64,000 nucleotides of DNA from Chiloscyllium plagiosum. Lineage: Eukaryota. The stretch's first letter is position 1. Each line of letters begins with the position of its first letter. A program made the translations under genes and the position numbers. The stretch is taken from the NCBI RefSeq assembly GCF_004010195.1, contig NC_057718.1:896298-960297 (forward strand), in the 5' to 3' direction. Shown here piece after piece: positions 3,953 through 59,762 of this stretch. The notes under the pieces are model-generated. The model had not been told where the DNA came from. It did no database searches and worked only from the letters and a program-made list of their open reading frames with translations.

Positions 3953-5475
3953 CTGGATGTGGGTTTGCTCGCTGAGCTGTAAGGTTCAGTTTCAACATTT
4001 CGTCACCATACTAGGTAACATCTTAAGTGAACCTCCGGATGAAGCACTGGTGGTGTAGCCTGCTTTCTATTTGTGTTTGGGTTTCCTTGGGTTGGTGACA
4101 TCACTTCCTGTGGTGACACTATTTCCTATGGTGATGTCATTTCCTGTTCTTTTTCTTAGAGGTGGTAAATGGGATCCAAGTCAATGTGTTTATTGATAGA
4201 GTTCCAGTTGGAATGCTATGCTTCTAGGAATTCTCATGTGTGACTCTGTTTGTCTTGTCCTAGGATGGATGTGTTGTCCCAGTCGAAGTGGTGTCCTTCC
4301 TCATCTGTATGTAAGGATACTTGTGAGAGTGGGTCATGTTGTTTTGTGGCCAGTTGATGTTCATGTATCATGGTGGCTAGTTTTCTGCCTGTTTGTCCAA
4401 TGTAGTGTTTGTTACAGTTCTTGCAAGGTATTTTGTAAATGATATTAGTTTTGCTTGTTGTCTGTATAGGGTTTTTCAATAGCTGCTGTTTTAGTGTGTT
4501 GGTGGGTTTGTGGGCTACCATGATGCCAAGGGGTCTGAGTATTCTGGCAGTAATTTTTGAGATGTCTTTGATGTAGGGGGGAGCGGCTAGGGTTTCTGGA
4601 CGTGTTTTGTCTGCTTGTTTGGGTTTGATGCTGAGAAATCGATGGACTGTGTTCATTGGGTACCCGTTCTTTTTGAATACACTGTGTAGGTGATTTTCCT
4701 CTGCTCTATGTAGTTCCTCTGTGCTGCAGTATGTGGTGGCTCGTTGAAATAATGTTCTGATGCAGCTTCGTTTATGGATGTTAGGATGATTGCGTCTGTA
4801 GTTCAATAATTGGTCCGTATGTGTTGTTTTCCTGTAGATGCTGGTTTGAAGTTGCCCATTGGCTGTTGGTTCTACTGTGACATCTAGGAATGGTAGTTTG
4901 TTGCTGTTTTCCTCCTTTTATTTTATGCCAGTAAGGGTATTGTTGATGGTCTTGAAGGTTTCTTCTAATTTGTTTTGTTTAGTGATGACAAAGGTGTCAT
5001 CCACGTAGTGGACCCAGAGTTTGGGTTGGATGGTTGGCAGAGCTGTTTGTTTGAGTCTCTGCATTACTGCCTCTGCTAAGAACCCTGATATTGGAGATCC
5101 CATGGGTGTTCCATTGGTTTGTCTGTAGGTTTTGTTGTTGAAGGTGAAGTGGATGGTAAGGCATAGGTCCACTAGCTTGATGATACCGTCCTTGCTGATG
5201 AAGTTGGTGGTGTTTGGTGTATGTGTCTTTGGTAGTTCTAATAATGTAGTCAGTGTTTCCTTGGTTGATGTTGATGTTGATGGATGTGAACAGGGCTGTT
5301 ACATCAAAGGAGACCATTATTTCGCCCTCTTCTATCTTGGTGTCTTTGGTCTTCCGGAATTCTTGGGTGGAGTGGATGGAGTGGCGTGAGTCTTCTACTA
5401 TTGTTTTAGTCTTTGGTGTAGCTCCAAAGAGGTGTTTTTCTGACTGGAGGTCTGCGACCAGTGGTGTTTGCAAGG
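3953..5475 (-). mobile_element. Penelope-like element (RT plus GIY-YIG endonuclease), frameshifted
   Basis: SFDVTALFTSI, GTPMGSPISG and YVDDTF RT motifs; IIYKIPCKNCNKHYIGQTGR GIY-YIG; degenerate hammerhead-like motif at about 3983-4035. Confidence 0.9.
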
Positions 5476-5937
5476 ATTAGTACAGAAACTACTATTGTTT
5501 GTCATATTTATAAATGGTTTGATTAGAAATGTCGATGGTCTGATTAGTAAGTTTGGAGATGACATGAAAGTTGGTAGACTTGTGGATGGTGAGGAAGGAT
5601 ATCAGAGGATGCAGTGGGATATAGATCAGTTGGAAAGTTGAGCAGAGAAATGGCAGGTGGAATTTAATCTGAACAAGAGTGAGATGATGTATTTTGGGAG
5701 GTCAAATGCAGGAGGAAAGTATACAGGAAATGGCTGAGTCCTCAGGAGCATTGATGTTCAGAGGGATCTTGGAATCCAAGTCCATAGTTTCCTGAAAGTG
5801 GCAACACAAGTGGATAAGGTGGTAAATTAGGCATATGGCACAGTCATGGCATTGAGTATAACATTTGGCAAGTCGTGCAGCAATTTTATAAGGATTTATA
5901 AAGGCCACATTTGGAGTTTTGTTCTGGATGTAGAGGT

Positions 5938-6640: not shown

Positions 6641-7226
6641 CCCCCCTTAAGAAAAAAGTGAACCATCATAATGAAAAGATGGTTTCATTTTATTTCTATT
6701 TCTTAACCATGTTACCATGACATACACAGGACTTTAATCTAAGTTCATATTAACTTCTGCCCACATTTATATAATGTTGGTATCTATTCAATCTCATCTA
6801 TACTTTATCAGCAAAATCCATGATAACACATCTGCTATTGCATTCTTACAACCTGCAATATGTATGAATTGTAAATTAAAAGTCTGTAACATAAGACTCC
6901 GATGAAATAATCTCATGTTCTTGTCTTTAAATCATTCCAAGAATGTAAGTGGATTGTGATCTGTGTACAGAACTGACTCTGACACATAGCTCGTGAAATT
7001 CTTTTTCGATCGGAGGGTATTTTCTCTGGTGGGTGTTGAGTTTCTTTGAGAAATAACTAACTGGCACAAAATTACATCATCATCTTCCTGTAGCAGTATA
7101 GCTGCAATTCCTATGTCACCAGCATCAATTGCAACTTTGAAGGGTTTCAAAAAGCTTGATGTAGCTAAAACTGGTGCAGTGGTTAGTACTGCTTTTAAAT
7201 TGTCAACTGCCTCCTGGTATTGTTCT

Positions 7227-15388: not shown

Positions 15389-17355
15389 GGAGAAAATGAG
15401 GGCTGCAGATGCTGGAGATCAGAGTTAAAAAGTGTGGCACTGGAAAAGCACAGGCAGCATCTGAGGAGCAGGAGAGTCCACATTTCGAGCATAAGCATTT
15501 TGTCAGGAATGTGGGGCTGGCTGAAGGGGGCTGAGAGATAAATGGGAGGGGAATGGGGTGGCGGGAAGGTAACTGGGAATGCGATAGGTGGATGAAGGTG
15601 AGAGGTGATGGTGATCGGTCAGAGAGGAGGGTGGAGTGGACAGGTGGGAAGGAAGATGGGCAGGTGGGACAGTTCAAGAGGGTAGTGCCGAGTTGGAGGG
15701 TCAGATCTGAGATAAGGTGGGGGAGGGGAAATGAGGAAGCTAGTGAAATCAACACTGATTCCATGGGAGCTGAAGGGCCGCAAGGTGGAAGATGAGGTGT
15801 TCTTCCTCCAGTTGTCGGATCGCTAGGATTTAGCAGTGGAGGACCTCGGGTCTTGCATGTCCTTGGTGGAGTGGGAGGGGGAGTTGAAGTGTTCAGCCAC
15901 AGGGTGGTGGGGTTGTTTGTTGCGTGTTGTGACGAGGCTGCTCATTCCGGCAAGGTGATGTCATCCTTGATTTTTGCTTGAGGTTGTAAACGGCCCAGAC
16001 TCTGAAAAGTTTGAGAGTTTGGATAGATTTTAGGGCCCATTTTTTACAGCTAACAGATACTGCCTCAGACAGAAGACTTTCAAGTTAAAAAAACTTGTGT
16101 AATGAAAGGGGAGTGGCCAGTTCAGCAGCAGCATGTTTGAAGGAAGGCTGTCGGAAGCAATCCAGCCTGATTCTCGCTCTTGCTCACTCTAACTTCAAGT
16201 GTGTAAGTCTTTGTTGGTTTTTACTTTTTGTGCCAAGGGGTGTTTATTGGGATTGTTGCATGTATTTTGGAATAGCATTAAGTCCGAATAGCCTCAGTGT
16301 TCGGATAGGATAAGTTTTCTATTTTCTGGTCTATGTGTTTCATACTGTAATTTTGTGAATAAATTCTGTTTTGTTTAAAAACTAAGTCAGCTGACCAGCT
16401 AATTCTCGGCAGGAAAATCCACTATACACTTAAGTAAATCAAATAGCAAAGCTAGGGTCTGGACTCTCAGTTTAAAATGTTTTGAGGGGTCGGGCCTGAT
16501 CCATAACAGTGTGTCCTGGCGATGTTCTCTGAAACATTCCGCAAGTTGACGTCCTGTCTCCCCAGTGTAGTTGATCAACTTCTCAAACACCTTTCACCCT
16601 GACCTCAATTTCACCTGGACCATCTTGAAAACACCTCCTTCTCTTTCCTGGACCTCCGCATTTCTATTTCTAGTGACTGACTCAACACGGGCATCTACTT
16701 CAAACCCACTGACTTCCGCAGCTATCTGGACTACACCATCCCCCCTCCCCCTTTCCAATCACAGCAAGGACACCTTTCACCACACAATCTCTGGATACAA
16801 CGCTTCATCCTTCGCCATTTCTGCCATCTACAGTCAGATCCCACCACCAGAGATATATTTCCCTCCCCACGCCTTTAAACATTCCGCAGAGACTATTCCC
16901 TCCGTGACTCCTTCATTAGGTCAACGCTCCCCCACCAACCCACCATTCCCTTGCCACCGCAACAAGTGTAAAACCTGCCTACCCCCCTCCTCCCATCTCT
17001 ATTCAAGGCTCCAAAGGATCCTTCCATATCCAGCCGAGATTTTCTGTACCTCCAAACACCTCATCACTGTACCTCCAAACACCTCAATGTGGTCAACTCT
17101 ATGTTGAGGACACAGGACACCAATTTGTGGAATGCTTCAGAGAACATCTCTGGGGCACACGCACTAAACTAACCCATCGCCCTGTGACCGAACACTTGCA
17201 TTCCCAGCTGCCTTGCACCCCCAGCCATTTATCTCTCAGCCCCCTTGTGGTTCTCCCACATTCCTGATGAAAAGCTTTTGCTTGAAATGTTGACTCTCCT
17301 GCTCCTCAGATGCTGTCTGACTGGCTGTGCTTTTCCAGCACCACATTTTTTGATT
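15389..17355. mobile_element. Penelope-like element with an inverted 5' segment
   Basis: 15389-16570 is the terminus plus GIY-YIG end on minus (YTGETGRQLAECFREH). 16571-17355 is RT end, GIY-YIG and terminus on plus. Interrupted by a solo LTR. Confidence 0.78.
15928..16508. mobile_element. Solo LTR (second family) nested in the PLE
   Basis: tgtgac...ataaca termini; TSD gtgt at 15924-15927 and 16509-16512; contains aataaa. Confidence 0.82.
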
Positions 17356-20119: not shown

Positions 20120-22668
20120 AGAACTTAGAACATTACAGCGCAGTACAGGCCCTTCAGCCCTCGATGTTGCGCTGACCTGTCATACCAATCTGAAGCCCAT
20201 CTAACCTACACTATTCCATGTACGTCCATATGCTTGTCCAATGACGACTTAAATGTACTTTGGCAAATCTACTACCGTTGCAGGCAAAGCATTCCATACC
20301 CTTACTACTCTCTGAGTAAAGAAATTACCTCTGACATTTGTCCGATATCTATCACCCCTCAATTTAAAGCTATACCCCCTCGTGCTCGCTGTCACCATAC
20401 TTGGAAAAAGGCTCTCCCTGTCCACTCTATCTAACCTTCTGATTATCTTATATGTCTCTATTAAGTCACCTCTCAACCTTCTTCTCTCTAACGAAAACAG
20501 CCTCAAGTCCCTCAGCCTTTCCTCGTAATACCTTCCCTCCATACCAGGCAACATCCTAGTAAATCTCCTCTGCACCCTTCTCAAAGCTTGCACATCCTCC
20601 TTCTAATGCGGTGACCAGAACTGTACACAATACTCCAAGTGCGGCTGCACCAGAGTTTTGTACAGCTGCAGTATAACCTCATGGTTACAGAACTCAATCC
20701 CTCTATTAATAAAAGCTAAAACACTATATGCCTTCTTAACAACCCTGTCAACCTGGGTGGCAACTTTCAAGGATCTGTGTACCTGGAAACTGAGATCTCT
20801 GCTCATCTACACTACCAAGAATCTTACCATTAGCCCAGTACTTTGCATTCCGGCTACTCCGATCAAAGTGAATCACCTCACACTTGTCCGCATTAAACTC
20901 CATTTGCCACCTCTCAGTCCAGCTCTGCAGCTTATCTATATCTCTCTGTAACCTACAACATCCTTTGTCACTATCCACAACCCCACCGACCTTAGTGTCG
21001 TCTGCAAATTTACTAACCCACCCTTCTACGCCCTCATCCAGGTCGTTTATAAAAATGACGAACAGCAGTGGATCCAACATCGACCCTTGCGGTACACCAC
21101 TAGTAACTGGACTCCAGGATGAACATTTCCCATCAACCATCACCCTCTGTCTTCTTTCAGCAAGCCTATTACTGATCCAAACTGCTATATTTCCCACTAT
21201 CCCATTCTTCCGCATTTTGTACAACAGCCTACTGTGGGGAACCTATCGAACGCTTTGCTCAAATCCATGTACACCACATCAACCGGTTTACTCTCATCTA
21301 CCTGTTTGGTCACCTTCTCAAAGAACTCAATAAGGTTTGTGAGGCACGACCTACCCTTCACAAAACCGTGCTGACTATCCCTAGTCAGCGGCATGGTGGC
21401 ATAGTGGGCAGCACGGTGGCACAGTGGTTAGCACTGCTGCCTCGCAGCGCCAGAGACCCGGGTTCAATTCCCGCCTCAGGCGACTGACTGTGTGGAGTTT
21501 TCACATTCTCCCCGTGTCTGCGTGGGTTTCCTCCGGGTGCTCCGGTTTCCTCCCACAGTCCAAAGATGTGCAGGTCAGATGAATTNTTTCTAGATGATTA
21601 TAAGTCCTATCTCTTATAACATTTTCCAACACTTTACCAACAACTGAAGTAAGGCTCACTGGTCTATAATTACCAGGATTGTCTCTACTCCCCTTCTGGA
21701 ACAGGGGAACCACATTTGCTATCTTCCAGTCTTCTGGCACTATTCCTGTAGACAATGACGATTTAAAGATCAATGCCAAAGGCTCGGCAATCTCCTCCCT
21801 GGCTTCCCAGAGGATCCGAGGATAAATCCCATCCAGACCAGGGGACTTATCCATTTTCACACTCTGCAGGATTTCTAATACCTCCTCCTTGTGAAGCTCA
21901 ATCCCACCCAGTCTAGTAGCCTGTATCTCAGTAATCTCCTCGACAACATTGTCGTTTTCTAGAGTGAATACTGTTGAAAAGTATTCATTTAGTGCTTCCC
22001 CTATCTCCTCTGACTCCACACACAACTTCCCACTACTATCCTTGATTGGCCCTAATCTTACTCTCGTCGTTCGTTTATTCCTTAAATACCTGTAGAAAGC
22101 CTTAGGGTTAACCTGTTCATATCCGCCAACAACTTCTCATGACACTTATTCAAGGAAAAGCTACTTATCTCGGACACACAGTAGCTTTTCCTTGAATAAG
22201 CTCCACATTTCTAATGTGCCCATCCCCTGCAGTTTATCCCCTGCAGTTTCCTTCCCCATCCTATGCTTCCTAAATCTTGCCTAATTGCATCGTAATTGCT
22301 TTTCCACCAGCTGTAACTCTTGCCCAGTGGTATATACCTATCCCTTTCTATCACCAAAGTAAACATAACAGAATTGTGGTCGCTGTCATCAAAGTGCTCA
22401 CCTACTTCCAAGTCGAACACCTGGCTGGGCTCATTGCCCAGTACCAAATCTAATGTGGCTTCGCCCCTTGTTGGCCTGTCTACATACTGTGTCAGGAAGC
22501 CCTCCTGCACACACTGAACAAAAACTGACCCATCTATTACACTCGTACTATAGTGTTCCCAGTCAATATTTGGATAGTTGAAGTCCCCCATGACAACTAC
22601 CCTGTCTCTCTCACTCCTATCGAGAATCATCTTTGCTATCCTTTCCTCTACATCTCTGGAACTATTCG
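20120..22668 (-). mobile_element. Nested CR1 LINE (antisense)
   Basis: RT motifs SGVPQGS and SKFADDTK on minus; TSD gagtt at 20115-20119 and 22669-22673. Confidence 0.9.
21388..21585 (+). mobile_element. tRNA-derived V-SINE/HE1-type SINE, cut at an assembly n
   Basis: A box tggcacagtgg, B box ggttcaattcc, V domain gggtttcctccgggtgctccggtttcctcccacagtccaaaga. Confidence 0.85.
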
Positions 22669-32734: not shown

Positions 32735-35700
32735 TGTAGGGAGGTACCCCCGCTGAAGGGAGGTAAACACGCTGTAGGGAGGTACCCCCGCTGAAGGGAG
32801 GTACCCCCGCTGAAGGGAGGTAAACACGCTGTAGGGAGGTACCCCCGCTGAAGGGAGGTAAACCCGCTGTAGGGAGGTACCCCCGCTGAAGGGAGGTACT
32901 CCTGCTGAAGGGAGGTAAACACGCTGTAGGGAGGTACCCCCGCTGAAGGGAGGTAAACCCGCTGTAGGGAGGTAAACACGCTGTAGGGAGGTATTCCCGC
33001 TGAAGGGAGGTAAACACGCTGTAGGGAGGTACCCCCGCTGAAGGGAGGTAAACACGCTGTAGGGAGGTACCCCCGCTGAAGGGAGGTAAACACGCTGTAG
33101 GGAGGTATTCCCGCTGAAGGGAGGTAAACCCGCTGTAGGGAGGTAAACCCGCTGTAGGGAGGTACTCCCGCTGTAGGGAGGTAAACCCGCGCTAGGGACG
33201 TACTGCTGCTGTAGGGAGGTAAACCCGCGCTAGGGACGTACTGCTGCTGAAGGGAGGTACTCCCGCTGAAGGGAGGTAAACCCGCGCTAGGGAGGTACTG
33301 CTGCTGAAGGGAGGTACTCCCGCTGAAGGGAGGTAAACCCGCGCTAGGGACGTACTGCTGCTGAAGGGAGGTACTCCCGCTGAAGGGAGGTAAACCCGCG
33401 CTAGGGAGGTACTCCCGCTGTAGGGAGGTACTCCCGCTGAAGGGAGGTAAACCCGCGCTAGGGAGGTACTGCTGCTGTAGGGAGGTACTCCCGCTGAAGG
33501 GAGGTAAACCCGCGCTAGGGAGGTACTCCCGCTGTAGGGAGGTACTCCCGCTGAAGGGAGGTAAACCCGCGCTACGAGGTACTCCCGCTGTAGGGAGGTA
33601 CTCCCGCTGAAGGGAGGTAAACCCGCGCTAGGGACGTACTGCTGCTGTAGGGAGGTACTCCCGCTGAAGGGAGGTAAACCCGCGCTAGGGAGGTACTCCC
33701 GCTGTAGGGAGGTACTCCCGCTGAAGGGAGGTAAACCCGCGCTAGGGACGTACTGCTGCTGTAGGGAGGTACTCCCGCTGAAGGGAGGTAAACCCGCGCT
33801 AGGGAGGTACTCCCGCTGTAGGGAGGTACTCCTGCTGTAGGGAGGTACACCCGCTGAAGGGAGGTACTCCTGGTGAAGGGAGGTAAACCCGCGCTAGGGA
33901 GGTACTCCTGCTGTAGGGAGGTAAACCCGCGCTAGGGAGATACTCCTGCTGAAGGGAGGTACTCCCGCTGAAGGGAGATACTCCTGCTGAAGGGAGGTAA
34001 ACCCGCGCGAGGGAGGTACTCCCGCTGTAGGGAGGTAAACCCACGCTAGGGAGATACTCCCGCTGAAGGGAGGTACTCCCGCTGAAGAGAGGTACTCCCG
34101 CTGAAGAGAGGTACTCCCGCTGAAGGGAGGTACTCCCGCTGAAGGGAGGTAAACCCGCACTAGGGAGGTACTCCCGCTGTAGGGAGGTAAACCCGCACTA
34201 GGGAGGTACTCCCTCTGAGGGGAGGTAAACCCGCGCTAGGGAGATACTCCCTCTGAGGGGAGGTACTCCCGCTGTATGGAGGTACTCCCACTGTAGGGAG
34301 GAAAACCCGCGCTAGGGAGGTACTCCCGCTGAAGGGAGGTAAACCTGCGCTAGGGAGATACTCCCGCTGTATGGAGGTACTCCTGCTGAAGGGAGGTAAA
34401 CCCGCGCGAGGGAGGTACTCCCGCTGAAGTGAGGTAAACCCGCGCTAGGGAGGTACTCCCGCTGAAGGGAGGTAAACCCACGCTAGGGAGGTACTCCCGC
34501 TGTAGGGAGGTAAACCCGCGCTAGGGAGGTACTCCCGCTGTAGGGAGGTAAACCCACGCTTGGGAGGTACTCCCGCTGTAGGGAGGTAAACCCGCGCTAG
34601 GGAGGTAAACCCGCGCTAGGGAGGTACTCCCGCTGTAGGGAGGTACTACCGCTGTAGGGAGGTAATCCTGCTGAAGGGAGGTACTCCCGCTGTAGGGACG
34701 TACTCCCGCTGTAGGAACGTACTCCCGCTGTAGGGACGTACTCCCACTGTAGGGACGTACTCCCGCTGTAGAGAGGTAATCCTGCTGAAGGGAGGTAATC
34801 CTGCTGAAGGGAGGTACTCCCGCTGTAGGGACGTTCTCCCGCTGTAGGGACGTACTCCCGCTGTAGGGACGTACTCCCGCTGTAGGGAGGTACTCCCGCT
34901 GTAGGGAGGTAAACCCGCGCTAGGGAGGTACTCCCGCTGTAGGGAGGTAAACCTGCGCTAGGGAGGTACTCCTGGTCTGTTCAGGTTTCAGCTATCTTTC
35001 CTTGCAGAGAAAAGACCTATCCATATTAAACTTTAATGACTGTATGGAGGTACTCCCGCTGAAGGGAGGTAAACCCGCGCTAGGGAGGTACTCCTGGTCT
35101 GTTCAGGTTTCAGCTATCTTTCCTTGCAGAGAAAAGACCTATCCATATTAAACTTTAATGACTGTATGGAGGTACTCCTGCTGAAGGGAGGTAAACCAGC
35201 TGTAGGGAGGTACTCCCGCTGAAGGGAGGTAAACCCGCGCTAGGGAGGTAAACCCCGCGCTAGGGAGGTAAACCCGCGCTAGGGAGGTACTCCTGCTGAA
35301 GGGAGGTACTCCCGCTGAAGGGAGGTAAACCCGCTGTAGGGAGGTACTCCCGCTGAAGGGAGGTACTCCTGCTGTAGGGAGGTAAACCCGCGCTAGGGAG
35401 GTACTCCTGCTGAAGGGAGGTACTCCCGCTGAAGGGAGGTAAACCCGCGCTAGGGAGGTAAACCCGCGCTAGGGAGGTACTCCCGCTGAAGGGAGGTACT
35501 CCCGCTGAAGGGCGGTAAACCCGCGCTAGGGAGGTACTCCCGCTGTAGGGAGGTAAACCCGCGCTAGGGACGTAAACCCGCGCTAGTGAGGTACTCCCGC
35601 TGAAGGGAGGTAAACCCGCGCTAGGGAGGTACTCCCGCTGTAGGGACGTACACCCGCTGAAGGGAGGTACTCCCGCTGTAGGGAGGTAAACCTGCGCTAG

Positions 35701-37098
35701 GGAGGTACTCCCACTGAAGGGAGGTACTCCCGCTGTAGGGAGGTAAACCTGCGCTAGGGAGGTACTCCCGCTGAAGGGAGGTACTCCCGCTATAGGGAGG
35801 TAAACCCGCGCTAGGGAGGTACTCCTGGTGAAGGGAGGTACTCCCGCTGTAGGGACGTACTCCCGCTGTAGGGAGGTACTCCTGCTGTAGGGAGGTACTC
35901 CCGCTGTAGGGAGGTAAACCCGCGCTAGGGAGGTACTCCTGCTGTAGGGAGGTAAACCCGCGCTAGAGAGATACTCCGGCTGAAGGGAGGTTCCCCCACT
36001 GTAGGTAGGTAAACCCGCGCTAGGGAGGTACTCTCGCTGTAGGGAGGTAAACCTGCGCTAGGGAGATACTCCTGCTGAAGGGAGGTACTCCCGCTGTAGG
36101 GAGGTACTCCTGCTGAAGGGAGGTAAACCCGCGCGAGGGAGGTACTCCCGCTGTAGGGAGGTAAACTCACGCTAGGGAGATACTCCCGCTAAAGGGAGGT
36201 ACTCCCACTGTATGGAGGTACTCCCGCTGAAGGGAGGTACTCCCGCTAAAGGGAGGTACTCCTGCTGAAGGGAGGTACTCCCGCTGAAGGGAGGTAAACC
36301 CGCGCTAGGGAGGTACTCCCGCTGTAGGGAGGAAAACCCGCTGAAAGGAGGTAAACCCGCGCTAGGGACGTACTGCTGCTGTAGGGAGGAAAACCCGCGC
36401 TAGGGAGGTACTCCCGCTGTAGGGAGGAAAACCCGCGCTAGGGAGGTACTCCCGCTGAAAGGAGGTAAACCTGCGCTTGGGAGGTACTCCCGCTGAAGGG
36501 AGGTAAACCCGCGCTAGGGAGGTACTCCCGCTGAAGGGAGGTAAACCCGCGCTAGGGAGGTACTCCCGCTGTTGGAGGTACTCCCGCTGAAGGGAGGTAA
36601 ACCCGCTGAAAGGAGGTAAACCTGCGCTTGGGAGGTACTCCCGCTGAAGGGAGGTAAACCCGCGCTAGGGACGTACTGCTGCTGTAGGGAGGTACTCCCG
36701 CTGTAGGGAGGTACTCCTGCTGAAGGGAGGTACTCCCGCTGTAGGGAGGTACTACCGCTGTAGGGACGTACTCCCACTGTAGGGACGTACTCCCGCTGTA
36801 GGGAGGTACTACCGCTGAAGGGAGGTAATCCTGCTGAAGGGAGGTACTCCCGCTGTAGGGACGTACTCCTGCTGTAGGGACGTACTCCCACTGTAGGGAC
36901 GTACTCCCGCTGTAGGGAGGTACTACCGCTGAAGGGAGGTAATCCTGCTGAAGGGAGGTACTCCCGCTGTAGGGACGTACTCCCGCTGTAGGGACGTACT
37001 CCCACTGTAGGGAGGTAATCCTGCTGAAGGGAGGTAATCCTGCTGAAGGGAGGTACTCCCGCTGTAGGGAGGTACTCCCGCTGAAGGGAGGTAATCCT
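32735..37098. repeat. 19-bp minisatellite, about 4.4 kb (gctg[a/t]agggaggtactccc and gcgctagggaggtaaaccc variants)
   Basis: More than 200 tandem units with interspersed variants and two internal 68-bp interruptions. Confidence 0.97.
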
Positions 37099-39385: not shown

Positions 39386-40300
39386 GTGGGCAGTGTGTGC
39401 TTGCCACCTTTCCTGCGCAGGTTTGTGTTTCAGGCAAAGGACAAGTTGAGGAGATACCTCAGAGCTAAGCAGAATGGGCAGTGGTGGGGGCGGGAGGTGG
39501 GGGGATGCATCTGTACCTTCTAGGTCTGAGGTTCTTTAGGGACTTAATTGGATTAATGTGTGGAAGAATGGCCATCTTGTGGTCAACAGGAAAAATGTTG
39601 AAGAGCAAACAAGATGTACTTAATTGATCTTTGCAACTATTTACAGGTTGTAAGATTCTCTTTACATTATCGTAATGACTTGGGAAGACCCATCCGAAGG
39701 TCTCTTCTCCCATAAAATCCTGTTTTAGTCTCTCACTAAGTCCTTGTGACATCGTCACAGTGGGCAGTGCTTACCGCACACAATCCCTTTAACCCTTTCA
39801 GACCCACATGCAAACAGTGAACATGAGAGTGAGGGAAGGATAGGTGACAGGGGATTGTGGGAATAGACTTGTATTTATTTTAAAAATTGTTGATGGGATA
39901 GAAAGCAGATGACAAATAAATGGGAATGGACAGAACGCAGATAAGTAGGGTTCCTTGTAGGAAAATGTGAAGTCATTCACTTTAGTCAGACAGGATAAAA
40001 CAAGATACATTCTAAACAGTGAGAGATTGGAAACAGTGGAAGTCGAAAGAGTTGGCCGGATGCACTGATCATTACAATGTAATGAACAAATACCGACAAA
40101 TAATCAAAAAGGCTTATAGAATGCTGGTCATTTTGTTTCAAGGACTGAAATACAAGGGGGGTATGTTTCATCCATACAAAGTCCTGGTTAGACCACACCT
40201 GGAGGTAGTCAGCACACCTCGGGAAGGAGATCTGAGAATAGAGGGTGGTCATGTACATTTACCAGTGTGAAAATTAATAACTAGGATTTTCCAATGCTCT

Positions 40301-40456
40301 AGGCAGAAGTGAGTACTGCAGATGCTGGAGATCAGAGTCAAGATTGGAGTGGTGCTGGAAAAGTCTTCATCATTCCTGAGGAAGGGCTTTTGCCCAAAAT
40401 GTCGATTTTGTTTCTCTGCTCCTGACCTGCTGTGCTTTTCCAGCACCACTCTAATC
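40301..40456. mobile_element. Partly deleted palindromic PLE-derived element
   Basis: TSD ttttccaatg[c/t]tct at 40287-40300 and 40457-40470; inverted arms gtggtgctggaaaag / cttttccagcaccac; degenerate ctgaggaagggcttttgccc core. Confidence 0.8.
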
Positions 40457-40798
40457 TTTTCCAATGTTCTGTCTGTTTTTCTCTTCTTGTAACCCTGTCT
40501 TCGACAAACTTTTGTTCATGCTTTATCTCTTGCTTTGGCTCACTGCCTCTCTGATGTACCCTATGCCCTCTCTTGCATGCTCCAGTCTCTGCCTAACTTT
40601 GTTCTCACTGCAGCGCTCTCTCTCTTTCTCTCTCTGCTGCGCTCTTGCCTTCTACCCAACTTGCACTTGCTGCACTGTCATTCTCTGCGTTATCTCTCTC
40701 TCTCTCTTTCACCCCTTGCCAACACTCCTTTCTTATCGTTTGGTTTGAGATGGGATGCATTTGCAGTGCAATTGTTGACAATATGCTTCTCTCTCTAG

Positions 40799-51365: not shown

Positions 51366-52501
51366 AGTGGGAAGAGACTGAACAAGAGTGGGGAAAAAGG
51401 AAGAGTCAAGATGCAGAGAAATAAAATCACTGGGGCATGTACAGGTTGAAACAATGGGTCTGCCAGAGCTGTCCTGGTTTTGGATTTTGGGAACAAGGTA
51501 GTGGGGTGTGCAGGCCTGGGGTAACTGTGAGGTGGGAAGCTGTGAAGGGAAGATTGCGAAAGGTAGATGAGGTCAGTGACAGTCCTGGTAACAGCTGTTT
51601 TGTGGAACACCTCCACTCTGCGCACAAGAATGATCCTGACCTTCCCATTGCTTGCCATTTCAGTAAATCATCTTGCTGCCATGGTAACAAATCCAAGCTG
51701 AGCCAGCTACAGGTGTTGCAAGGAAGCTGAATGTAAACTGTAGAAATACCACCTCATTTTCTCCTTCAGCATTTTACAGCTTCTAGGATTCAACATTAAA
51801 CAATTTCAGAGCATGACCTCTGTCCAACAATTGATTACATCCCCACCCAGCCATCCCTGACATTATCTAATTTGTGACTTGTTGACTTTGCTCTCAGCAG
51901 AGCTGACCTGTTTTCTCCTTTTCTAACCTAGCTCCAATGATGCTGTCAGACCTGCTAAGTTTTTCCAGCACTTTGTTTTCATTTCCCAAACTTGAAGTAT
52001 TGACTCCTGTCCTTTTAATTGCTGGAGGAATGAGCTGAGTGAAGCATGAAAAGCTACATTTCCTTCAGTAGAGATTAACTTCAAGGAGTACCTTACAAAC
52101 TTTCTACAGCTCAGAAACAGGCCTTCTGGGCCAACATATCAGTGCTTCTGTTGTACTCCTCATGAGCCATGTCCCACCTTATTTCATTAAAGGTTAAGTT
52201 GCCATAGTCTTCTCATTAGAGAGAGAGGGGGGGGATCTGGTGGTGGTTTAACCTGAGGATCACCATGCCCCGAGAGAGGAGAGGTTGAGAAGGAAGGTCC
52301 TTCATGGTAACCTCATTAAACCTATCAGCAAAGGCTTATATTCCTTTCTCCTCCATTGTAGAGGCATAATGAAATCAAATAGTTTGTAAGAGCTTTTTGC
52401 TTGCTGAAGTTACAGTCTTTAGAAGTGTACGAAACACTGAGGGGTTTGCTGGCTGAACTAATGGAATGAGATGCTCTTTAAACCCCTGCCACCTTCTTCA
52501 G

Positions 52502-52673
52502 TTCACAGAGCTTGATCACCTGTTACCCACTTTGGAGGAAGCAGCCCAGTTACAAAGCAACTGCCAGTCCAGTGCAGCTAATAACGGCCTGACGTCGAGA
52601 GGTGGGAAGAGGGAGCAGCTTTTGGACCCACTTCACTCCAACAGCGTCACCAGGACACTTCAGCGCCTCAAGG
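52502..52673 (+). CDS. NCOA1: NCOA1-like internal exon
   Basis: cttcag| acceptor and G|gtatgt donor; 172 nt, phase 0-1. FTELDHLLPTLEEAAQL resembles NCOA1 FDQLLPTLEKAAQL. Confidence 0.88.
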
Positions 52674-52702
52674 GTATGTCACCAATGCTGTTCTCCTGCT
52701 AA

Positions 52703-52931
52703 GGAGAAAGTGAGGTCTGCAGATGCTGGAGATCAAAGTTGAAACTTTATTGCTGGAACAGCACAGCAGGTCAGGCAGCATCCAGGGAACAGGAGATTCG
52801 ACGTTTCGGGCACAGGCCCTTCCTCAGGAATGAGTCATTCCTGAGGAAGGGCCTGTGCCCGAAACGTCGAATCTCCTGTTCCCTGGATGCTGCCTGACCT
52901 GCTGTGCTGTTCCAGCAATAAAGTTTCAACA
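52703..52931. mobile_element. Palindromic PLE-derived element with 15-bp TSD
   Basis: TSD ctgttctcctgctaa at 52688-52702 and 52932-52946; perfect inverted arms 52738-52833 and 52835-52930. Confidence 0.92.
52837..52872 (+). ncRNA. Putative minimal type I hammerhead ribozyme (mirror copy on minus at 52796-52831)
   Basis: attc-CTGAGGA-a-GGGC(ctgt)GCCC-GAAAC-GTC-gaat: stem I attc/gaat, stem II, palindromic ACGT stem III and a GUC cleavage triplet. Confidence 0.7.
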
Positions 52932-52967
52932 CTGTTCTCCTGCTAACTCAAATCCTGTAAGTTTGAT

Positions 52968-54161
52968 GAGAAAGTGAGGACTGCAGATGCTGGAGATCAG
53001 AGCTGAAAATGTGTTGCTGGAAAAGCGCAGCAGGTCAGGCAGCATCCAAGGAGCAGGAGAATCGACATTTTGGGCATAAGCCCTTCTTCAGGAATGAGGA
53101 AAGTGTGTCCAGCAGGCTAAGATAAAAGGTAGGGAGGAGGGACTTGGGGGAGGGGCGTTGGAAATGCGATAGGTGGAAGGAGGTCAAGGTGAGGGTGATA
53201 GGCCAGAGTGGGGGTAGGGGCGCAGAGGTCAGGACTGTGGCTGATGTTCTGATTATGTTCTGTTAATCTTTGTTCATTCATACCATAGGTTCATACGAAG
53301 TTTCATAATCGACAGGCACATGCTCCTGGCAGTGACACCTCCTGTCTTAGCTTCTCATACGATGGCAACACCCTGGCCTCACGTGGTGGTATGTGTCTGT
53401 TTCTGTACATATAAATATGTGCCTCGTAAGTACTGCGCAAGTGTTGCACCTCCTGCGGTTGCATGGGAAGGTGCCGGGAGTGGAGGTTGGGTCGGTGGGG
53501 GGTGTGGGTCTGACAAGGGAGTCGCGGAGGGAGTGGTCTCTACGGACAGCTGATAGGGGAGGGGAGGGAAATATATTCTTGGTGCTGGGGTCTGTTTGGA
53601 GGTGGCGGTAGTGACGGCGGATGATGCGCTGTACATGGAGATTGGTGGGGTGGTAGGTGAGGGCCAGTGGGGTTCTGTCCTGGTGGCGATTGGAGGGGCG
53701 GGGTTCAAGGGCGGAGGAGCGGGAAGTGGAGGAGATGCGGTGGAGAGCATCGTCGATCACGTCTGGGGGGAAATTGCGGTCTTTGAAGAAGGAGGCCATC
53801 TGGGCTGTTCAGTATTGGAAGTGGTCCTCTTGGGAGCAGATGCGGCGGAGACGAAGGAATTGGGAATATGGGATGGCGTTTTTATGGGGGCAGGGTGGGA
53901 GGAGGTGTAGTCTAGGTAGCTGTGGGAGTCGGTCGGTTTATAGTAAATGTCCGTGTTGATTCGGTCACCCGAGATAGAAATGGAGAGGTCTAGGAAGGGG
54001 AGGGAGGAGTCTGAGACGGTCCAGGTGAATTTGAGGTCGGGGTGGAAGGTGTTGGTAAAGTGGATGAACTGTTCAACCTCCTCGTGGGAGCACGAGGCAG
54101 CGCCGATACAGTCATCGATGTAGCGGAGGAAAAGGTGGGGGGGTGGTGCCAGTTTAGCTGC
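52968..54161 (-). mobile_element. 5'-truncated PLE carrying a foreign segment of about 200 bp
   Basis: TSD gtttgat at 52961-52967 and 54162-54168; FLRYIDDCIG and DIYYKPTDSHSYLDY; terminus at 52968-53234; GIY-YIG region missing and replaced by about 53235-53434. Confidence 0.88.
53289..53388 (+). pseudogene. WDR70: Orphan WDR70-like exon copy with splice sites, embedded in a Penelope-like element
   Basis: T-rich tract and ccatag| acceptor; G|gtatgt donor; 100 nt. Reads VHTKFHNRQAHAPGSDTSCLSFSYDGNTLASRGG, close to recalled vertebrate WDR70 (VHPKFHYKQAHDSGTDTSCVTFSYDGNVLASRGG). No other WDR70 exons seen. Confidence 0.8.
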
Positions 54162-57049: not shown

Positions 57050-57876
57050 ACAGTCCTCCACTGCCCCACCTCCATCCCCGTTCCACTGCTCTAAACCCTC
57101 ACCCACAACAAATGCAATAAGGCCAGAGTCCCTCTTGTCCTCACCTACCACCCCACCAGTCTCTGCATTCAACGCATCATCCTTAAACACTTCTGCCAAC
57201 TCCAACTAGACCCTACCACCAAGATCATCTTCCCCTCTCCTGCCTTCCGCAAAGATCGTTCCCTTCTACAGTCCTTGGTTTGCACCACCCTCCCCACCAA
57301 CGCCCCTGAACCCCCAGGTACCTTCCTCTGCGACCGGAAAATATGCAAAACATGGTGGCACACCAGCCCCTCACCTCCATCAGGGCCCCAAACAGTCCTT
57401 CCAGGTGAGAGAGAGGTTCACTTGCCTCTCCTCCAACTTAGTTTATTATATCAGGTGCTCCCAACGTGGTCTTTTCTACGTCGGGGAGACCGAACGTAAA
57501 CCTAGGGAACGGTCCGTCGAGCATCACATCCAGGCCTGCAGGAGCCAACCAGCCCTCCCAGTCACTGCCCATTTCGATTCCCTTTCCCATTCCCTTTACG
57601 ACATGACTGTCCTTGGCCTCCTCCATTGCCACAACGAACCAAACCGCAAATTGGAGGAACAACACCTCATCTTTCGTCTGTGCAGCCTACAGCCCAGAGG
57701 ACTCAACATTTGAGTTCTCCCATTTCAAATAACCTCCCTTCCCTTCCCCGACTCCCTTCCCAGCCCCTCCCCCTCCCTTCCATTTCACCCTGCCACCTAC
57801 CAGATCCATTCCTTCCATTGACCAACCACGTCGTACCCTCTACTTGCCTCTACGTATCCCCACCTCACCACCCTGC
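57050..57876 (+). mobile_element. PLE fragment with GIY-YIG, running into a gap (57877-58703)
   Basis: NLVYYIRCSQRGLFYVGETERK and RKLEEQHLIFRL. Confidence 0.85.
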
Positions 57877-58703: not shown

Positions 58704-59260
58704 GCCTGCCTTGCTGTGTTCTCCCAGCCTCCTGATGCTGCCTGCCTTGCTGTGTCCCTGTCCCTCCTGATGCTGCCTGCCTTGCTGTGTCCCTGTCCCT
58801 CCTGATGCTGCCTGCCTTGCTGTGTCCCTGTCCCTCCTGATGCTGCCTGCCTTGCTGTGTCCCTGTCCCTCCTGATGCTGCCTGCCTTGCTGTGTCCCTG
58901 TCCCTCCTGATGCTGCCTGCCTTGCTGTGTCCCTGTCCCTCCTGATGCTGCCTGCCTTGCTGTGTCCCTGTCCCTCCTGATGCTGCCTGCCTTGCTGTGT
59001 CCCTGTCCCTCCTGATGCTGCCTGCCTTGCTGTGTCCCTGTCCCTCCTGATGCTGCCTGCCTTGCTGTGTCCCTGTCCCTCCTGATGCTGCCTGCCTTGC
59101 TGTGTCCCTGTCCCTCCTGATGCTGCCTGCCTTGCTGTGTCCCTGTCCCTCCTGATGCTGCCTGCCTTGCTGTGTCCCTGTCCCTCCTGATGCTGCCTGC
59201 CTTGCTGTGTCCCTGTCCCTCCTGATGCTGCCTGCCTTGCTGTGTTCTCCCAGCCTCCTG
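58704..59260. repeat. 35-bp tandem repeat (cctgatgctgcctgccttgctgtgtccctgtccct)
   Basis: 14 apparently identical units at 58731-59220 plus partial flanking units. Confidence 0.95.
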
Positions 59261-59314: not shown

Positions 59315-59762
59315 GGTGAGGGATTTGAGAGTGTGTGTTGGAAAACACAGGTCAGGCAGCATCTAGAACATAGAACATAGAACATAGAAGAATACAGCGC
59401 AGTACAGGCCCTTCGGCCCTTGATGTTGCGCTGATCCAAGCCCACCCAACCTACACTAACCCACTATCCTCCATATGCCCATCCAATGCCCGCTTAAATG
59501 CCCATAATGAGGGAGAGTCCACGACTGCTACTGGCAGGGCATTCCATGAACTCACAACTCGCTGAGTAAAGAACCTACCCCTAACATCTGTCCTATACCT
59601 ACCCCCCCTTAATCTGAGGAGCAGGAGAATCGATGTTTCAGGTATAAGACTTTCATTAGGAATCCCTCATTCCTGATGAAGGGTTTATGCCTGAAACTTC
59701 GATTCTCCTGCTCCTCAGATGCTGCCTGACCTTTTGTGCTTTTCCAGCACCACACTCTTGAC
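59315..59762. mobile_element. Palindromic PLE-derived element interrupted by a CR1 3' end (59365-59611)
   Basis: Inverted arms around aggaatccctcattcct; ctgatgaagggtttatgcctgaaacttc core; atct duplication around the CR1 piece. Confidence 0.78.

Follow-up and report, generated by a model that had tools for sequence, protein, structure and literature searches.

A perfect hammerhead-bearing palindrome in a shark NCOA1 intron is very likely a short Penelope-like element insertion

The window analysed here is a stretch of 64,000 nt of contig NC_057718.1 of the bamboo shark Chiloscyllium plagiosum, numbered from its first letter. It contains coding exons of NCOA1, among them a large upstream exon whose product is 100% identical over 373 aa to Chiloscyllium plagiosum NCOA1. 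The exon beside the feature of interest (coding bases 52511-52672) is genuine NCOA1 as well (Table 1). Its donor GT stands at 52674, and an insert of 229 nt (52703-52931) begins after 29 intron nt, the distance from the exon that an earlier note on this DNA had given. The host intron extends from 52674 to about 54384 and the next exon from about 54385. An NCOA1 intron also holds a 4.4-kb GC-rich, 19-bp-based satellite at 32735-37097.

Table 1. Coordinates of the features discussed, in window numbering (PLE, Penelope-like element; TSD, target-site duplication; RT, reverse transcriptase)
Feature	Position	Strand	Remarks
NCOA1 coding exon	52510..52673	+	54/54 identity to NCOA1 residues 760-813 (P0057)
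Left TSD copy, 15 bp	52688..52702		15/15 with 52932-52946
PLE tail, 35 nt; element 3' end	52703..52737	-	on left arm only; homologous to 52968-53001
Left arm, 5'-truncated pseudo-LTR copy	52738..52834	-	hammerhead core 52827-52800; element sense on -
Right arm, pseudo-LTR copy, inverted, without tail	52835..52930	+	96/96 complement of left arm
Minimal type I hammerhead, no stem III loop, palindromic ACGU	52837..52872	+	predicted cut after C52868
Lone A	52931	+	matches neither tail nor left flank
Right TSD copy	52932..52946		15/15 with 52688-52702
Older separate copy, family 3' end with tail	52968..53214	-	82/96 identical to arm
Broken PLE ORF fragment (RT end, thumb, Cys linker), same family	53434..54140	-	outside the insertion
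Older head-to-head insertion	40307-40459 (within 40287-40470)		tail left; 13/14 TSD; centre partly deleted; left arm mostly missing
Older head-to-head pair	59326-59757 (to 59760)		no clear TSD beyond 7 nt

The insert consists of a 35-nt tail, two 96-nt arms separated by one base and a final lone A (35 + 96 + 1 + 96 + 1). The exact arms around a single G and the perfect 15-bp TSD that the earlier note had described both held up: the arms (52738-52833 and 52835-52930, centre G52834) are reverse complements at 96/96 positions, and the direct repeat around the insert matches at 15/15. With loops of up to 29 nt, the runner-up perfect inverted repeat in the window has arms of 21 nt only. At 22145-22200, two perfect 21-bp inverted arms flank a spacer of 14 nt. 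A TSD of 20 bp with two CpG decays was considered and rejected, since a contig of a related organism (organism B) agrees with the left flank as far as 52687, and the additional right-hand bases are part of the arm. The noted anatomy is correct, but the locus is not singular, as the head-to-head arrangement occurs twice more in the window.

Each strand carries a hammerhead core with stems I and II and an extra A before stem II, as had been noted, and we could locate every box on both strands. On the plus strand, stem I (52837-40/52869-72) is followed by the CUGAnGA box (52841-47), the extra A (52848), stem II (52849-52/52857-60), GAAA (52861-64) and GUC (52866-68); the minus-strand motif (52827-52800) is its mirror. 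All core bases and a 4-bp stem I are retained. At up to two mismatches the motif has 7 matches in the window and 0 in 100 shuffles, and scans of metagenome contigs and viral contigs returned 0 and 0. The proposed assignment to the minimal hammerheads of PLEs is borne out by the core boxes, stems I and II, the extra base and the palindromic positions 15.2-16.2, all of which are present; the extra base before stem II and palindromic 15.2-16.2 define the minimal hammerhead in the excerpted text of Cervera and de la Pena (2014; PMC4209133). Like the metazoan PLE hammerheads of that text, the shark motif has a type I core without a stem III loop, its extra base lies between 9 and 10.1, followed by G10.1-C11.1, and stem I is short. 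Its stem II has 4 bp, compared with 7-8 bp in the Schistosoma families, and the excerpt names no shark family (PMC4209133). The covariance-model search suggested in the earlier note did not recover the motif: none of the 6 Rfam matches with E values of 10 or below was a hammerhead, and there were 0 matches at gathering score, as expected for a motif without stem III. Rfam miRNA and snoRNA matches lay far below their gathering scores and were rejected, including a miRNA precursor (mir-513, 33.4 bits versus 72.1) that is a generic hairpin match. The description of the hammerheads as back-to-back is right in that both are present; they lie on opposite strands, however, so that one transcript contains one ribozyme and its antisense and no cis dimer can form within it. 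Opposite-strand pairs about 100-700 bp apart were already known from the same excerpt (PMC4209133), whereas just 13 nt separate the shark motifs, each of which masks the other.

The repeat unit is the 3' end (pseudo-LTR, pLTR) of an abundant PLE encoding RT and a GIY-YIG endonuclease (EN). BLAST of the left part gave many matches in the window, from which 13 stretches were aligned; weak partial matches and one piece consisting of tail alone, next to an N gap, were set aside. The hammerhead region is present in 12 of these 13 stretches, corresponding to 10 insertions. In one long copy (15936-15389, minus strand) the unit lies 3' of the GIY-YIG C-terminus, and in another (16571-17351, plus strand, with the unit at 17259) it lies 3' of RT and linker matches, each time in the same orientation as the coding match. 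The RT homologues are shark and ray proteins, several of which carry RVT_1; two distant matches also carry GIY-YIG. With Pfam, 3/6 fragments and the peptide of the exon gave no match, and the GIY-YIG matches all scored under the cut-off. Between RT and EN, a Cys motif occurs in the 53347-53808 frame and in many of the homologue matches, and a Zn-finger-like Cys motif in this position is common to Neptune and Nematis in the excerpted account of Craig et al. (PMC8557442); the shark motif points to one or the other. The insert is very likely a maximally 5'-truncated, dead-on-arrival EN+ PLE, probably of Neptune type, in an NCOA1 intron. Non-PLE sequence (53215-53434) separates the older neighbouring pLTR copy from its RT fragment. 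A second PLE family is represented by fragments at 4234-5476 (minus strand), whose endonuclease region differs and is 24% identical to P0001.

Three of the 10 family insertions in the window are head-to-head, each with a different centre. The left arm of the pair at 59326-59757 is interrupted by another repeat at about 59364-59613, and its 5' ends, at 59664, are unequal (-4 and -9). Two long PLE 3' fragments facing outward at 15389-17351, with a junction near 16549-16571, may represent a fourth composite insertion, for which no TSD was found. By eye, the ends of 8/12 arms with a hammerhead lie about 3-10 nt upstream of the CUGA box; 4 arms extend further and 0/12 start at the predicted cut site. 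The TSDs of the tailed copies at 7219, 26211, 40291 and 52688 contain AGAACA or AGAGCA in element sense, and these four cases may reflect a preference of the endonuclease. A 35-bp tandem array (58704-59245; 15.5 copies, 98%), with a unit similar to a portion of the pLTR arm, adjoins an N gap 3' of a GIY-YIG fragment (57210-57710). Elsewhere in the genome, the joints listed include tail-to-tail inverted family joints (window positions 52702 / 52968; 48, 6 and 7 contigs) and 33-nt tail duplications.

Parts of the stretch are present in 20/24 of the sequencing runs listed, and contigs from four runs were aligned to it; word shares were not used to call presence or absence, because paralogues supply arm words. 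Mismatch-free contigs of run X3 cover the left junction (52300-52725) and the right junction (52908-52990), and one of X5, a separate study, covers the left junction (52646-52725). These contigs extend 23 letters into the repeat, under the 31-letter rule of the mapping, and no contig among those listed spans the palindrome centre. The X5 contig has a depth of 4, compared with 9-12 in the flanks, which is too thin for calling polymorphism within organism A. A contig of 284 nt from organism B (run X10) follows 52461-52687 with 2 differences and then leaves the reference, with 57 letters remaining versus about 59 expected for an empty site. We infer that the insertion is absent from organism B; the empty-site joint was not among the best 15 of 382 joints. 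Of the bases rarely seen in 10 other window copies, both arms carry all 11, and the 3 CpG of each arm are intact. Together with the 96/96 arms and the organism B contig, these CpG agree with the young non-coding insertion proposed earlier, and the insertion indeed looks young. Relative to the older neighbouring copy, arm-like contigs have a depth of 0.099 and 0.071 in organism A and of 0.0024 in B, a 23-41-fold enrichment that, as summed contig depth and not copy number, suggests a recent subfamily burst.

In the NCOA1 pre-mRNA, the insert is predicted to fold into a hairpin of -223.9 kcal/mol (z -28) whose duplex starts 64 nt past the donor. Masking of the ribozyme by this hairpin, as the earlier note anticipated, is what the models give: forcing the ribozyme fold costs +64.7 kcal/mol, and the pairing probabilities of stems I and II are below 0.001 in 4/4 pre-mRNA prefixes. 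In such predicted folds, 10 nt of the left arm suffice to abolish stem I. The ribozyme is thus predicted to be locked unfolded inside the hairpin. Folding the core freely as two strands yielded a non-hammerhead duplex and was uninformative. Donor accessibility was higher with the insert than without it in local folds, which are unreliable for this purpose. An effect on the nearby donor had been suggested, but the annotated NCOA1 proteins of three related sharks, compared within a cluster of 4 members whose fourth is partial and without this exon, are each 1333 aa long with an identical junction at exon 52510-52673, and nothing points to altered splicing. Long duplexes in introns are targets of ADAR, which makes editing of the hairpin plausible. 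Most likely, the insert is removed with the intron by splicing and has no function for the host.

The formation of PLE insertion products is still described as undefined in the available part of Craig et al. (PMC8557442). We give somewhat better than even odds to twin priming of both nicked target strands. The element's GIY-YIG endonuclease would make staggered cuts in the target, 15 nt apart; reverse transcription would be primed by the top-strand end at a distal start, the tail end at 52703, and by the bottom-strand end at a proximal start 35 nt further in, at 52930. The two cDNAs would halt at -7 and -6 relative to the CUGA box, be joined head to head and then be filled in. Loose ends of the family in three contig sets form, among the best 18 of 1301, a pile at 52968 (324, 293 and 85 contigs) and, among the matches listed, a second at 53001-53006 (61-128 contigs). 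Transferred to the insert, the piles fall at 52704 and 52737-52742, where the two arms have their outer ends, and they are 33-38 nt apart. An Anolis PLE protein, PAc of Poseidon, is described in the excerpt of Frangieh et al. (PMC11167929) as cleaving and extending both target strands from two RT starts separated by the tail, with uncleaved hammerhead RNA as template; the steps proposed for the shark element would be alike. The shark element, unlike PAc, belongs to a different clade (Cys linker), and its target resembles the tail at 9/13 positions, whereas PAc primed in vitro at non-homologous sites in the excerpted experiments (PMC11167929). Our literature search, judged by titles, returned no title on twin priming for PLEs.

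The main competitor of twin priming is a fold-back, in which a single cDNA primed itself at its 3' end and was copied back over 96 nt; either an endonuclease nick at the boundary of the tail or pairing of tail sequence with the target overhang would then have resolved the product. We consider it doubtful, despite several points in its favour. It accounts for the perfect identity of the arms, including the 11 shared rare bases, self-priming was proposed and favoured for such junctions by Arkhipova (2013; PMC3846280, as excerpted), and the tail would be the product of EN-mediated resolution as outlined in part of PMC8557442. The target (52931-52943) matches the tail start in register at 9/13 positions, a level reached by 166 of 125,320 window 13-mers in a post hoc comparison, which fits microhomology resolution; either twin priming or fold-back can use this match, and as a family rule the similarity is absent, by eye, at 40457 and 59757. 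Identical arms would be expected from one RNA template and from a homogeneous young subfamily alike. A 1-nt spacer cannot form the loop that folding back demands, however, and a 3-nt loop would need two bases that are untemplated upstream in the long window copies; the central G52834 is the next templated base in family copies. Solo tail-less copies stop at the same proximal site without a mirror arm, and the unequal ends at 59664 offer no closing pair for a fold-back.

Other explanations fare worse. That the palindrome is a non-autonomous mobile unit, MITE- or retrozyme-like and copied whole, would suit its compact, TSD-flanked form and the richness of arm-like contigs in organism A, yet the three head-to-head pairs of the window differ in centres and subfamily sequences, tandem units, which define non-LTR retrozymes in the excerpt of 10.64898/2026.07.22.740005, are lacking, and the whole transcript would be a closed 96-bp duplex; we regard this as improbable. 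Similarly improbable is a host-relevant RNA that tunes NCOA1 splicing, be it an intronic hairpin that is edited or processed or an active ribozyme. The perfect duplex so close after the donor, the action of ADAR on such structures and the intact core with its 4-bp stem I speak for it. It is opposed by the unchanged junction and protein length in related sharks, the predicted masking, the probable absence of the insertion from a close relative and the behaviour of minimal hammerheads in vitro, for which the excerpt of PMC4209133 reports no monomer cleavage and low dimer cleavage. An assembly or library fold-back artefact, to which the unspanned centre might point, is extremely improbable in view of the 15-bp TSD, the one-sided tail at family-typical ends, the junction contigs from two studies and the older pairs of the same design elsewhere in the window. 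Our preferred reading, a dead-on-arrival PLE insertion in an NCOA1 intron, has as a whole a probability of roughly 0.8.

The earlier note had missed that a palindrome with a one-sided 35-nt tail is a PLE insertion anatomy already described (PMC8557442 and PMC3846280, in excerpt). Craig et al. (PMC8557442) report PLE insertions with an inverted 5'-truncated copy and a 30-40-bp tail on one end, Arkhipova et al. (PMC3846280) inverted pLTRs accompanied by a TSD and a tail, and Schostak et al. (PMC2377424) PLE insertions in a like inverted arrangement, each in the portion consulted here. As in these EN+ PLE insertions, the shark locus shows head-to-head 5'-truncated copies, a tail on one end, a TSD and a junction palindrome. 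The features of an EN+ PLE are found together in it: a 3' end belonging to an RT + GIY-YIG element, an inverted 5'-truncated copy at the 5' end and the one-sided 35-nt tail. It differs from the EN+ insertions in those excerpts in that it has no ORF and the palindrome is the entire insert, and its TSD measures 15 bp compared with 8-10 bp in the rotifer PLE examples given there. Non-LTR retrozymes (bioRxiv 10.64898/2026.07.22.740005) are similarly non-coding, hammerhead-bearing and PLE-derived; assignment to them was rejected, because the excerpted definition requires at least two head-to-tail hammerhead units and the locus has one head-to-head pair without a tandem array. The literature searched contained no paper on this shark PLE family, which Repbase or Dfam may already hold. 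The insertion is real, but it is a described kind of PLE insertion with a described kind of ribozyme motif.

As one among many PLE stubs in the genome, the locus itself carries little weight. Its value is that a PLE insertion product can be seen in it cleanly and free of mutations, and it might serve as a marker specific to the species. Provided that perfect hairpins of this kind are common in introns, editing in shark transcriptomes could find major substrates in them. The arms begin with TCATTCC, which we take to fit the Initiator consensus. It is tempting, if tentative, to read the stubs as an in vivo record in which both strands use one short RNA for priming, from two starts separated by 35 nt, the cDNAs run off at a transcription start site just upstream of an uncleaved hammerhead, and a tail-like target can guide proximal priming. 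If this were true, comparing the junction sequences of many young copies in sharks would suffice to tell twin priming from self-priming.
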